NCBI GenBank assembly: GCA_039974935.1
Contig: JBDWIC010000006.1
Span: 93,434 to 157,433 of the forward strand
Direction of reading: 5' to 3'
From: Lentilitoribacter sp.
Lineage (GTDB): Bacteria > Pseudomonadota > Alphaproteobacteria > Rhizobiales > Rhizobiaceae
DNA: 64,000 bases
A program made the position numbers and the translations under genes. The notes under the pieces are model-generated. The model saw only the letters and a program-made list of their open reading frames with translations, was not told the DNA's origin and did no database searches. Each line of letters begins with the position of its first letter. Positions within the stretch are counted from its first letter, which is position 1. This document shows, in pieces, positions 57,937 to 63,430 of this stretch.

Positions 57937-59295
57937 CTAGCGCTCAGAGAAAGATGAGCTGAAGGATTTTAAAACCGGCTTGAGCATGTAGCGCATAAGC
58001 GACTTCGACCCAGTTTTGATCTTAGCATCAACCACCATGCCAGCATGGAGATAACGCTTACTCTGATCTTCACCGATGAAGTTGTCTTTTAAATCAATCA
58101 CAGCCTTGTAATAAGGTTCGCCTTTTTCAGTTAAGAATGTGGTTGGCGATAGAACTGCAATCTTACCAGTTGCCGTACCAAAAATACTTGGATCGAAGGT
58201 AGATATATTTACCTCTGCATTGTCACCTTCTTTAATATGACCAATGTCATAAGGATCAACGCGAACCTCAGCAACAATTTGGCGTTCAGCAGGAACGACT
58301 CGCGCGATCAATTCTCCCGAACCGATAACTTCACCTTCAGCCTTTTGAACGACTTCCTGCACAATGCCATCGATAGGCGATTTGATAAATAATCTATCAG
58401 TGCGATCTTGTTGTTTGTTTAGTTGCTCGCGCGCTTGTGCGAGCTCAGATAAAACCTGTGCTTGTTCTTCACCAAGCAATTTCTTTTCCTGCGCCAATTT
58501 GCTTTCGATGACGCGACCAGCTTCTTCTAGCTGTAATTCAGCAACCTGCTGTTGGCCAAACGCGCTATCGATGCTCTGAGTAATTCGTTCTAAACTTGCT
58601 TTAGCGTCGAGATATTCTTTGCGCGAAACATGTCCGGCTTTCAAAAGGGATTGCAAACTATCGTGGCGTTCTTGCTCAATGGTCAACTGACGCTTTAAGC
58701 TTTTAACTTCACTTTCGTAAGCATTAGCTTCAAGTCTCTTCAATGCTTTGCCAGTTTCAAGATTGGCTAGCTCTTTTTGTAAAAGCGCAGCGCGAGCATA
58801 ATGCGCAATTTTCTCTTTTTCGTATAAATCGGGATATTGTTGTCCGATATTACCAAAGGCAGGTTCTTCTTCGTTAGCTAAAGCTTCCAATGATTTTAAA
58901 CGAAGCTCAAGAGATACGGCCTGAATTTCCACTTGCCCAAAATCTGCTTCGGTAGAAGTCGCATTGAGCAAAATAATTGTATCGCCTGCTTTAACACTCT
59001 GGCCCTCTTTGACTAGAACAGCATCGACGATGCCACCTTCGCGGTGTTCGATAGAGGTCACATTTGCAGTTGGTATGATTTCGCCGTTGGCAAGCACTAA
59101 TTCATCAATTGGGGCAAAAATGGCCCAGACGATTGCAGCAATAAACAACAAGCACAAAAGATTAGCCCGCCTGCCCATCACGATGATTGTTTTGTCATCA
59201 TCTAACTCGGCTGGCAGGATAAATGAGTTTCCAGAAACTTCACTTTTCCTAATCTGCACTTTTGTTCGATCCCACTTGATAAATGATGCACTCAT
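57937..59295 (-). CDS. HlyD-family type I secretion periplasmic adaptor
   Basis: N-terminal cytoplasmic tail plus single TM (LLCLLFIAAIVWAIFAPI), lipoyl-like halves, long coiled coil, C-terminal beta-barrel ending SLMRYMLKPV. Confidence 0.9.
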   Translation of the reverse strand: MSASFIKWDRTKVQIRKSEVSGNSFILPAELDDDKTIIVMGRRANLLCLLFIAAIVWAIFAPIDELVLANGEIIPTANVTSIEHREGGIVDAVLVKEGQSVKAGDTIILLNATSTEADFGQVEIQAVSLELRLKSLEALANEEEPAFGNIGQQYPDLYEKEKIAHYARAALLQKELANLETGKALKRLEANAYESEVKSLKRQLTIEQERHDSLQSLLKAGHVSRKEYLDAKASLERITQSIDSAFGQQQVAELQLEEAGRVIESKLAQEKKLLGEEQAQVLSELAQAREQLNKQQDRTDRLFIKSPIDGIVQEVVQKAEGEVIGSGELIARVVPAERQIVAEVRVDPYDIGHIKEGDNAEVNISTFDPSIFGTATGKIAVLSPTTFLTEKGEPYYKAVIDLKDNFIGEDQSKRYLHAGMVVDAKIKTGSKSLMRYMLKPVLKSFSSSFSER

Positions 59296-59401
59296 CGCAC
59301 CTAAACACTTTGTAGCTATTTGAGGAAATCAGTAGGTATTTCAATTAACCCCAAAAATCACATGCTACTTTTAGTATTTCTACCAGAAGTATCGTTAATA
59401 T

Positions 59402-61633: not shown

Positions 61634-61651
61634 AAATGACGAAGCCCCCCA

Positions 61652-63430
61652 TTAAGATGCAGATTGAGCAGATGGTTTATCCGCTTTTGGTTGAACAAAA
61701 TCATCTGGCAAAAGATGACCATCATGCATACGAAGCCTTTGGTCACAGATTTTCAAAAATGAAGGGCGGCTGGAAAAGTATACGGCAGTCATCTTGCCTT
61801 TGAGAGTTGAAAGTCCATCGGCAAGTAATTTGTCGGAACGCATATCCATATTGCTGTTTGCGCCATCAAAAATAAAGATTTTTGGTTGTTTTCTAATCGC
61901 GCGCGCAATTTTTATTCGCTGGAGAAAACCTGGAGATAAAATTGATGCAGAACCAATGCTCAACACCGTATCATAGCCATCTGGAAGTTTAAAAATATCT
62001 TGCTCGAGGCCGATGAGACGTGATGCTTCACGCGCGCTTTCAACTAAGTTTGCGCCGCCAAACATGGTGAGATTATCAATGATTGTGCCTTCAAAAATCT
62101 CAGTTTTAGCTGACACAAAACCAATCTCGCGATTAATGCCAAGTTCGTGCCATTGTTTAGACGAGAAACCATCAGCAAACACATTTCCATTTTCGGGTAA
62201 GAACTTCCCATTTAAGAAACTAACAAACTCAGTTCTTTCAGCGTTTTCTTGGCAGTGAATACCGATGAATTCACCAGGAGTTGCAGTTAAGTTGTATGGC
62301 TCGACGTCAGCGTTTTTGTCATTTGACGGTAGAACAAGATTTCGGATGCTAAAGGCACCTTTGGTCAAATTTTCGCGACTTTCGTCATGCTGTAAACCTT
62401 TGTTGGCAATTCGATCGAACACATTGCAACGTTTTCTGGCCAAGCGAATGTTCTGAATTTCATGAAATAGCGTCAATGCACGAGCAAACGGCTGAACCAT
62501 TCGCCCAGTTAAGAGCGAGCAGCATGCAAGCGCCGCTAAACTCATGTCACCGCCGATGACCCGAACAGCACCAAATGAAACTACGCAGATCATCATCATA
62601 TTTGAAAAGACGACGCCCTGTGTTTGCAGTTTGTTGGTACTGATAATAGCGTGATAACTTGAAACAGTTGATGTTTTTTGCAACATTTCAAATCGTCGGA
62701 GCAGCTGGCTTTCAACGGCCAAGTTCTTCACAGTTTGAATGTTTGAAAAAGTTTCCAAAAGGAAATCATTTTGGCGCGTATCCTGCTGAGAGCGATTATC
62801 AAGAAATGACTGAATTTCTTGCCCCTGTAGGAAACTAAATAGTCCAAAAGCGATAATAAGAACGATAGGTGCAAACACAAGCGTGCCGCCCACTAATGCC
62901 ACCATCGCTAAGAAGATAAACGCCATTGGAATGTCAATGAGGATTGTTCTGTTCTGACTACCCTGGAAATTGCTGTATTCCGCAATTGCATCAAGCCCGT
63001 CTAACCATTTAGATCGCGTAATTGTTGCGCGTTCACCTGGATTTGCGTTTAACAGCTGGTTCATTGCCAATTGCTGTGCGCGATGACCGTTTTTTAGCGC
63101 TGCCCAGCCAAGTATATAAGATCTTAAGCTACGTAATATTGTGTCAAGAATAACGGCTGCTAATAGTCCAGCAATCAACCAAAACAAAGTTGCTCCAGCT
63201 TGATTTGGTAATATCCGGTCATAAACTTGAAAGATCGCGAGTGGCATTGCTAAACCCAAAAGGTTTGCGATTAGCGAGATGACCAATACTTGTTTTGTTA
63301 AAGGTGTATCTGCTTCGGCCACGACTGGATTTTTGACTTTGTTATCAGCGCGCGCGTCTGCAATCACCGAGGATAATTCTTCGGTCTTGGCGGCTATTTT
63401 ATCTGCAATTTTGCGTGCCATGCGTATCAA
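61652..63430 (-). CDS. T1SS-type ABC half-transporter with pseudo-NBD (no Walker A)
   Basis: TMD motif FQVYDRILP. The NBD fold is recognisable, but the P-loop position reads GIHCQENAERT, Walker B is IFIFDG, and the H-loop is FSSRPS. The signature is LSPGF. The start may be the ATG at 63421. Confidence 0.85.
   Translation of the reverse strand: MIRMARKIADKIAAKTEELSSVIADARADNKVKNPVVAEADTPLTKQVLVISLIANLLGLAMPLAIFQVYDRILPNQAGATLFWLIAGLLAAVILDTILRSLRSYILGWAALKNGHRAQQLAMNQLLNANPGERATITRSKWLDGLDAIAEYSNFQGSQNRTILIDIPMAFIFLAMVALVGGTLVFAPIVLIIAFGLFSFLQGQEIQSFLDNRSQQDTRQNDFLLETFSNIQTVKNLAVESQLLRRFEMLQKTSTVSSYHAIISTNKLQTQGVVFSNMMMICVVSFGAVRVIGGDMSLAALACCSLLTGRMVQPFARALTLFHEIQNIRLARKRCNVFDRIANKGLQHDESRENLTKGAFSIRNLVLPSNDKNADVEPYNLTATPGEFIGIHCQENAERTEFVSFLNGKFLPENGNVFADGFSSKQWHELGINREIGFVSAKTEIFEGTIIDNLTMFGGANLVESAREASRLIGLEQDIFKLPDGYDTVLSIGSASILSPGFLQRIKIARAIRKQPKIFIFDGANSNMDMRSDKLLADGLSTLKGKMTAVYFSSRPSFLKICDQRLRMHDGHLLPDDFVQPKADKPSAQSAS

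Follow-up and report, generated by a model that had tools for sequence, protein, structure and literature searches.

A putative type I secretion system (T1SS) operon, comprising genes for two ATP-binding cassette (ABC) proteins and one adaptor, was located at positions 57937-63430 on the minus strand of a 64,000-nucleotide stretch of DNA from Lentilitoribacter sp., a marine alphaproteobacterium (contig JBDWIC010000006.1; the whole stretch is referred to as the window). The three consecutive open reading frames (ORFs) encode ABC-B, ABC-A and a HlyD-family adaptor, and each ABC protein is a half-transporter with a transmembrane domain (TMD) and a nucleotide-binding domain (NBD). Judged from sequence, and with a probability of roughly two in three, the locus would be a working T1SS whose engine is an obligate ABC-B/ABC-A heterodimer with a single ATP site that is impaired in hydrolysis. 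In type I secretion it is still debated whether ATP is a stoichiometric fuel or a switch that opens or resets the channel. To our knowledge, every T1SS ABC protein characterised so far is a homodimer that has two canonical sites; for this reason the role of ATP has, as far as we know, been approached only through engineered mutants that abolish secretion. An evolutionarily stable engine with one pocket that lacks both the Glu base and the H-loop His would provide a natural test of hydrolysis versus binding, and with its own probable cargo gene next to it, such an engine would be directly testable.

The arrangement proposed in an earlier sequence-only reading, three co-directional genes for ABC-B, ABC-A and a HlyD adaptor, was borne out by the ORFs and by Pfam and NCBIfam searches. 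Both ABC proteins matched the Pfam families ABC_membrane and ABC_tran, with an ABC_tran score of only 30.6 bits for ABC-B. The top NCBIfam models of both were TIGR03375 (LssB), TIGR01846 and TIGR01842, which represent the T1SS proteins LssB, HlyB and PrtD (E-values 4e-86 to 3e-117); the cut-off of TIGR03375 type_I_sec_LssB (693.1 bits) was reached neither by ABC-B (289.7 bits) nor by ABC-A (392.8 bits). The adaptor scored above the cut-off of TIGR01843 type_I_hlyD (308.2 versus 208.65 bits). Among solved structures, the best phmmer match of both ABC proteins was HlyB (7sgr; E-value 3.7e-57 for ABC-A and 1.4e-42 for ABC-B), and in this alignment the TM1 motif previously described as T1SS-type (VYDKV / VYDRI) was located opposite VMDKV of HlyB. 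ABC-A and ABC-B are two paralogues with ~25% identity to each other. Annotation pipelines name the two proteins only generically, which holds for the PGAP/NCBI names of both orthologue sets. The stop codon of ABC-B and the start of ABC-A are separated by 18 nt, and database homologues of ABC-B begin at the ATG at 63421 (589 aa), which is likely the true start. The locus thus combines an ABC exporter homologous to HlyB/PrtD/LssB, a HlyD-family adaptor in the same operon and an adjoining predicted RTX-repeat cargo. The coordinates of all features are listed in Table 1.

Table 1. Features of the two-ABC operon, its nucleotide-site motifs and the adjoining cargo gene (positions in the window).
Feature	Position	Strand	Description
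HlyD-family type I secretion adaptor (membrane fusion protein)	57937-59295	-	452 aa; TIGR01843
ABC-A	59402-61633	-	743 aa; half-transporter with C39-like domain, TMD and NBD
ABC-A H-loop VTQRPS	59522-59539	-	His replaced by Gln
ABC-A Walker B IYMFDD	59624-59641	-	FDD opposite FDE of HlyB; catalytic Glu replaced by Asp
ABC-A signature position LTKSF	59687-59701	-	opposite LSGGQ of HlyB; second Gly lost
ABC-A Walker A GDSGAGKS	59993-60016	-	intact; opposite GRSGSGKS of HlyB
ABC-A C39-like domain	61109-61501	-	residues ~45-175; AF2 model and Foldseek
ABC-B	61652-63430	-	592 aa from TTG; half-transporter with TMD and pseudo-NBD, without N-terminal C39-like domain
ABC-B H-loop region FSSRPS	61760-61777	-	His replaced by Ser
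ABC-B Walker B IFIFDG	61862-61879	-	FDG; Asp kept, catalytic Glu replaced by Gly
ABC-B signature LSPGF	61925-61939	-	opposite LSGGQ of HlyB; Ser and second Gly retained
ABC-B pseudo-P-loop GIHCQENAERT	62231-62263	-	opposite GIVGRSGSGKS of HlyB; Walker A glycines gone, Lys replaced by Arg
Divergent intergenic region between cargo gene and operon	63431..63692	.	262 bp
Giant cadherin-repeat / RTX-repeat gene, 5' end	63693..64000	+	runs off the window; probable cargo

The motifs of both NBDs were placed by phmmer alignment of each ABC protein to the solved HlyB structure (7sgr) and their nucleotide coordinates were recomputed. The positions previously assigned by eye were the same in the HlyB alignment, and the nucleotide coordinates matched exactly. 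In ABC-A, the residues G540, G545 and K546 of the intact Walker A are invariant. At the HlyB Walker A, GRSGSGKS faces CQENAERT in ABC-B, and distant members of the B family have GSGK[ST] at this pseudo-P-loop position. The Q-loop Gln of HlyB corresponds to Gln in ABC-A and to Ala in ABC-B. The H-loop change from His to Gln in ABC-A was seen only in the clade of Lentilitoribacter. The signature Gly and Gln and the Walker B Asp of ABC-B are among the best-conserved NBD columns of the B family (G501 in at least 90%, Q504 invariant). In the same pipeline, T1SS ABC proteins from outgroups gave canonical motifs, as did the genome's own two PrtD-like ABC proteins (C3:264599-269176 and C10:208419-212975; Walker A, DE and His canonical).

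A nucleotide site of an ABC protein is composed of one NBD's Walker A, Walker B, Q-loop and H-loop together with the other NBD's signature (PMC7756269). Given this composition, only one pocket appears possible in the ABC-B/ABC-A pair. This pocket (site 1) would be formed by the P-loop of ABC-A and the ABC-B signature, LSPGF, and its catalytic positions would be occupied by Asp and Gln, an assignment that is supported by the motif states. The reciprocal pocket (site 2), formed by the P-loop position of ABC-B and LTKSF of ABC-A, is by the alignment destroyed on both faces, as had been proposed. Neither is a canonical ABC ATPase site: site 1 combines K/D/Q with LSPGF, and site 2 combines a missing P-loop, G and S with LTKSF. 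The string HCQENAERT that replaces the P-loop of ABC-B is near-invariant in the genus and rich in acidic residues; as a speculation, it may fill the former phosphate pocket.

The assignment of the two ABC proteins to one transporter was supported by gene order, phylogeny and gene fusion. The order ABC-B, ABC-A, adaptor (B-A-D) was present in 18/18 fully examined loci (14 loci and 4 further contigs) down to ~29% identity, and in an order-wide sample of 80 loci the B gene was followed by an A-type gene in 78. Phylogenetic analysis of both proteins in one tree showed A and B to be each monophyletic (96 and 100, respectively) with internal topologies that mirror each other, and a long shared stem (0.83 and 1.2 substitutions per site) leads to the genus. 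An exhaustive profile search over 1.84 billion representatives had as its best matches fused B-A proteins of ~1300 aa (P0246-P0283), which form ~23 clusters at 50% identity. The N-terminal half of these proteins scored best on the B model, and the C-terminal half, including the C39-like domain, on the A model. Two of the reference genomes (L079 and L083) also carry B-A fusions. Within the fusions the C39-like domain links the first NBD to the second TMD, and the proteins are full-length T1SS ABC transporters. Fusion in gene order is classically taken to indicate that two proteins belong to the same complex. The conserved order, the mirrored trees and the fused proteins together support that ABC-A and ABC-B are the halves of one heterodimer, from which we infer the stoichiometry in the assembled machine. 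These three lines of evidence and the conserved signature of ABC-B also support the claim of the sequence-only reading that the only nucleotide site would consist of the P-loop of A and the signature of B.

An arrangement of separate A2 and B2 homodimers in a multi-dimer assembly, with A2 binding nucleotide and B2 being structural or channel-forming, is very improbable on the same evidence. Such an assembly would resemble the HlyB/HlyD complex, in which three ABC dimers sit under one adaptor ring (7sgr, 6 HlyB chains), and it would fit with the strongest constraint in the operon being on the TMD of ABC-B (dN/dS 0.008). However, the fused B-A proteins force a 1:1 intramolecular pairing in each of their clusters, and the mirrored trees fit direct contact between the two proteins. 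An A2 dimer would, moreover, pair the P-loop of A with its own dead LTKSF, whereas the better-conserved signature is in B.

The strength of selection was estimated from one pair, the window and the closest genome (G005, dS ~0.5), as all other pairs were saturated at synonymous sites. For this pair, dN/dS was 0.008 in the TMD and 0.048 in the NBD of ABC-B, 0.021 in the C39-like domain, 0.015 in the TMD and 0.008 in the NBD of ABC-A, and 0.010 in the adaptor. In more distant pairs dN stayed at 0.03-0.09. The window and eight further loci from the genus, with identities as low as 70%, had identical degenerate states; the strings HCQE(N/K)(A/V)ERT, FDG, SSRPS and LSPGFLQR of B and LTKSF, FDD and TQRPS of A were kept genus-wide. 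All three operon frames were intact in 7/7 genomes of the genus. Because the degenerate states are identical throughout the genus, the P-loop-less NBD of ABC-B is, on this pattern of conservation, a conserved domain with a retained role.

The earlier view that the operon is not the product of simple decay therefore stands, with dN/dS of 0.008-0.05 in every domain and degenerate states that are kept genus-wide; in the comparison of orthologues that it had called for, the substitutions were conserved and under strong purifying selection. Recent lineage-specific decay was ruled out, since every close relative carries the same degenerate states and the canonical K/E/H of ABC-A was found only at ~40% identity. 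It is also barely credible that the operon is a remnant, decaying or silenced, and that export of the adhesin falls to one of the genome's two canonical PrtD-type T1SS or, in a softer form of this explanation, that a canonical ABC protein supplies the energy. The genome does contain two pairs of a canonical PrtD-like ABC protein, with intact Walker A, DE and His, and a putative adaptor, but each of these ABC proteins would have an adaptor of its own. The two-ABC module, in turn, has every domain under strong purifying selection and intact frames in all genomes of the genus, and it is kept beside giant adhesin genes across distant lineages.

To place the Lentilitoribacter operon among its relatives, homologous modules were compared across the order. 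The identity of each ABC protein within the family falls continuously from 98% to ~30% and then drops to the ~25% of canonical T1SS ABC proteins. The module was present in all 7 Lentilitoribacter genomes, and a search of other genera in the same taxonomic family did not find it. In an even sample of the order, a B-type gene was found in 86 of 401 genomes, representing 38 of 150 genera. Motifs were scored in 77 B/A pairs from this order-wide sample (L047-L126); as the genomes are related and the alignment was automatic, the following counts are descriptive and carry no statistical test. A site that combines the Walker A Lys, the catalytic Glu and the H-loop His was found in 13 of the 77 pairs. 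Lys and Glu were kept in site 2 (B) alone in 29 pairs, in site 1 (A) alone in 20, in both in 17 and in neither in 11, so that the subunit that has degenerated varies from lineage to lineage. The best 150 B-type representatives included 53 with the His, 100 with the Glu and 113 with the Lys.

Individual relatives carry intermediate states. The deep relative L039 has Lys, Glu and His in both subunits and is off-consensus only in its LPxG-type signature. The His of B is lost in L002 and L040, and Glu and His are kept in ABC-A of L002, L038 and L039. In the L001 clade (41% identity) B has changed from K to R and A from E to D, and in the Lentilitoribacter clade the whole P-loop and the Glu of B are lost and the His of A is replaced by Gln. 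The catalytic losses appear to have been stepwise, with Lentilitoribacter as the extreme of a widespread family habit, their direction being read from canonical outgroups in a tree whose root is unestablished. The sequence-only reading had treated the trait as one of a single locus; its description of the locus was correct, and the same degenerate habit is widespread in the family. These data support the assignment of the locus to an uncharacterised and widespread family of two-ABC, sometimes fused, T1SS, of which the Lentilitoribacter version would be an extreme case. Two-ABC T1SS are thus far commoner than the Vibrio MARTX example, and single-chain fused forms exist.

In the favoured reading of a heterodimer with one hydrolysis-impaired site, the inner-membrane engine would be an obligate ABC-B/ABC-A heterodimer docked to the HlyD-type adaptor and an unlinked TolC-like protein, and its cargo would be the divergently encoded giant cadherin/RTX adhesin. 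The pocket would be built from the Walker A, Q-loop and Walker B of ABC-A and closed by LSPGF of ABC-B. The pseudo-NBD of ABC-B would bind no nucleotide and would be kept as dimerisation partner and as docking site for the coupling helices. With Asp as the general base and Gln at the H-loop, ATP binding and NBD closure are expected to be kept and hydrolysis is expected to be slow. ATP would then be mainly a long-lived latch, keeping the pump translocation-competent while a ~3500-residue polypeptide is exported, and slow hydrolysis would reset the pump. Much of the driving force could come from the RTX and cadherin repeats, which would fold outside the cell in a Ca2+-dependent manner, and possibly also from the membrane potential. 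The idea of a Ca2+-folding ratchet is known from the general RTX literature. ATP as a latch is favoured because published E-to-D pockets bind ATP and hydrolyse it far slower than the transport cycle, usually with accompanying changes of the H-loop (PMC7756269). The E-to-D and H-loop changes, which the sequence-only reading had taken as marks of degenerate sites, match these published hallmarks, and a D-loop mutation has been described that turns TAP into a nucleotide-gated facilitator (PMC7756269).

Several observations weigh against a hydrolysis-impaired site or against the proposed machine as a whole. The Asp at the catalytic position of ABC-A retains a carboxylate, and ABCC1 mutants with Gln or Asn at the H-loop of the consensus site show wild-type-like transport (PMC7756269); because of these two points the ABC-A pocket might still turn over usefully. 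The signature of ABC-B is non-canonical (LSPGF), the aromatic residue of the A-loop of ABC-A is His and not Tyr, which bears on ATP affinity, and the motif calls in the most divergent family members hinge on automatic alignment. In addition, the operon lacks a linked TolC-like gene in this genus. The carboxylate of the Asp and the tolerance of ABCC1 both favour the main rival explanation, an ordinary ATP-driven pump in which the pocket of the A P-loop and the B signature works at a normal rate with an Asp base and Gln for His, as a TM287/288-like exporter with variant residues in its working site. This would also agree with the H-loop His being gone from most sites of the family, many of which have Lys and Glu, so that the family may not rely on His. 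We nevertheless regard an ordinary pump as unlikely, since natural as well as engineered E-to-D sites hydrolyse much slower than the transport cycle (PMC7756269) and an Asp together with a non-His residue is the published signature of non-catalytic sites such as that of ABCB2/B3. The relatives that keep Glu and His in ABC-A (L002, L038 and L039) further indicate that the changes are derived.

A broader proposal can be made for the family, which we hold to be possible though rather doubtful: it could be a widespread family of T1SS that export giant Ca2+-binding adhesins and are devoid of any hydrolytically competent site, in which ATP is a gating ligand and the cargo is pulled by Ca2+ folding and/or the membrane potential. 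If so, the Lentilitoribacter locus would be its most extreme member and a natural equivalent of the catalytic-residue mutants that trap ABC transporters.

The system was compared with characterised secretion systems and transporters. Apart from MARTX, a literature search, with subscription journals outside its scope, did not find any T1SS described as having a heterodimeric or degenerate ABC engine, nor one whose engine lacks a canonical site. The MARTX T1SS of Vibrio has four components (RtxB, RtxD, RtxE and TolC), and a heterodimer of its two ABC proteins has been proposed (PMC3034196; PMC4316617). It shares with the present locus two ABC proteins and one adaptor in one operon, which is divergent from a very large RTX cargo gene, and an unlinked TolC. 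In contrast to the order ABC-adaptor-ABC of MARTX, the order was ABC-ABC-adaptor in every locus examined here. The cargo here is adhesin-like (cadherin/RTX), and no rtxH, rtxC or acyltransferase gene is located between the operon and the cargo gene. RtxE was described as an additional ATPase, and no degenerate NBDs were reported for MARTX (PMC3034196; PMC4316617); the comparison of the present proteins with RtxB and RtxE was made from these published descriptions. HlyB/HlyD/TolC provides the best solved match for both ABC proteins and has the domain order of ABC-A (C39-like domain, TMD, NBD), an adaptor of the same family and an RTX cargo with a C-terminal signal. HlyB, however, is a homodimer with two canonical sites that have Glu and the H-loop His, whereas the present proteins are paralogues with one site erased and Asp and Gln in the other.

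Composite sites with E-to-D, H-loop and signature deviations are also known from TM287/288, TmrAB and TAP1/2 (ABCB2/B3) (PMC7756269; PMC8277102). In these transporters the degenerate site is always paired with a consensus hydrolytic site, whereas the second site of the Lentilitoribacter pair has no P-loop, and for this reason the D/Q site would be the only nucleotide site. Nucleotide binding as a gate and not as stoichiometric fuel has a precedent in CFTR (ABCC7; PMC7756269); CFTR differs in having one hydrolytic consensus site and is a eukaryotic anion channel unrelated to protein secretion, so that the likeness is functional and hypothetical. With regard to LapA-type T1SS (LapB/C/E with LapG/LapD), the genome contains two LapG-like genes (PF06035, Peptidase_C93; C1:549518-549991 and C8:137589-138065), which are unlinked to the operon, and visual inspection of the cargo's first 200 residues revealed no TAAG-type site.

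The probable cargo gene had been missed by the sequence-only reading, although it starts inside the window at 63693. Its ORF within the window (63693-63998, plus strand) continues for at least 2370 aa to the end of the contig, and the Pfam matches comprised 13 Cadherin domains and HemolysinCabind, with the cadherin repeats interspersed with blocks of RTX nonapeptides. The 3' end of the gene is on a separate contig (C11, 88% identity). Within the genus, one complete genome has a cargo homologue of 3495 aa at the same divergent position, the C-terminus of which consists of a lectin-like domain, RTX nonapeptides and a ~70-residue tail. A lectin-like domain and RTX repeats followed by a C-terminal tail form the layout that is classical for a T1SS cargo. 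Homologous B-A-D modules adjoin cadherin or RTX giants (4929 aa and 1811 aa) or are located upstream of OEP genes. The giant cadherin/RTX protein is thus the probable cargo of the B-A-D system.

As for the outer-membrane partner, the absence of a TolC-like gene from the window was confirmed, and three OEP genes were found elsewhere in the genome. One of them, a 483-aa OEP encoded at C1:505 kb, shares 33-37% identity with the OEPs beside homologous modules and would be a candidate for the TolC-like protein of the system. Consensus scans gave no sigma-70 match in the 262-bp spacer between the cargo gene and the operon, fewer sigma-70 matches than in shuffles across 57300-64000 and terminator-like matches at chance level. 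Among the sequencing runs that contain the stretch, none is recorded as RNA. Four RNA-seq runs with the same species label had zero reads on 52500-64000, which allows no verdict on expression as the presence of the organism in these runs is itself unproven. Each of the two PrtD-like ABC genes of the genome adjoins an ORF of ~440 aa, taken as a putative adaptor; the exact string LSGGQ was absent from both PrtD-like proteins by regular expression.

The N-terminal domain of ABC-A had no match to the PF03412 profile in the Pfam scan and was investigated by structure prediction. An AlphaFold model (AF2) built on a 21-sequence alignment had a confident core (pLDDT ~90, residues 85-165), and its best Foldseek matches were 3b79, the C39-like domain of HlyB (3zua) and 7sgr (E-values 1.3e-5 to 2.6e-4; TM up to 0.68 by target). 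All 21 aligned N-domains have Cys53 and the Pro75-His76 pair (61403-61480, minus strand), with the register of Cys53 relative to active C39 enzymes judged by eye only; these invariant residues may form an alternative dyad or a feature for binding cargo. The position of His83 of HlyB is Val or Asp in ABC-A, the canonical C39 His being gone, and the position of the canonical C39 Asp is Asn in this genus. By the predicted fold and the missing His, the domain is C39-like and probably non-proteolytic, in agreement with the earlier comparison to HlyB.

Downstream of the adaptor gene, the window contains a urease cluster (52600-57728, minus strand) with the genes ureA, ureB, LprI-like, ureC, ABM, DUF6500, ureE, ureF and ureG, in which the LprI-like gene, the ABM monooxygenase and DUF6500 are three non-urease inserts. 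A functional link between the operon and urease was considered and rejected: relatives in the genus and in the family have unrelated genes at this position, and the adjacency looks incidental. No ureD was found in the window, and the only UreD gene of the genome is located on contig C11 (29494-30093). The same contig holds the 3' end of the adhesin gene, and ureD may therefore lie beyond the T1SS/adhesin module. In another species of the genus (L003/L004, 6584-9370) the adaptor gene is directly followed by a ROK-family and a xylose-isomerase-like gene. In the window, the ROK-family gene (44848-46059) and a xylose-isomerase-like gene (41978-43291) are located ~12 kb further from the adaptor. 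Because these two genes adjoin the adaptor in the other species, the block between them and the operon (~46.3-57.7 kb), which contains Amt-MCP, TRAP and urease genes, looks like an insertion/deletion difference within the genus. The Amt-MCP gene of this block is an 865-aa ORF on the plus strand (46344-48941) that combines an Amt domain (residues 52-442) with HAMP and the signalling domain of methyl-accepting chemotaxis proteins; its neighbours are the genes for the TRAP transporter and urease, and it may encode an ammonium- or urea-linked chemoreceptor.

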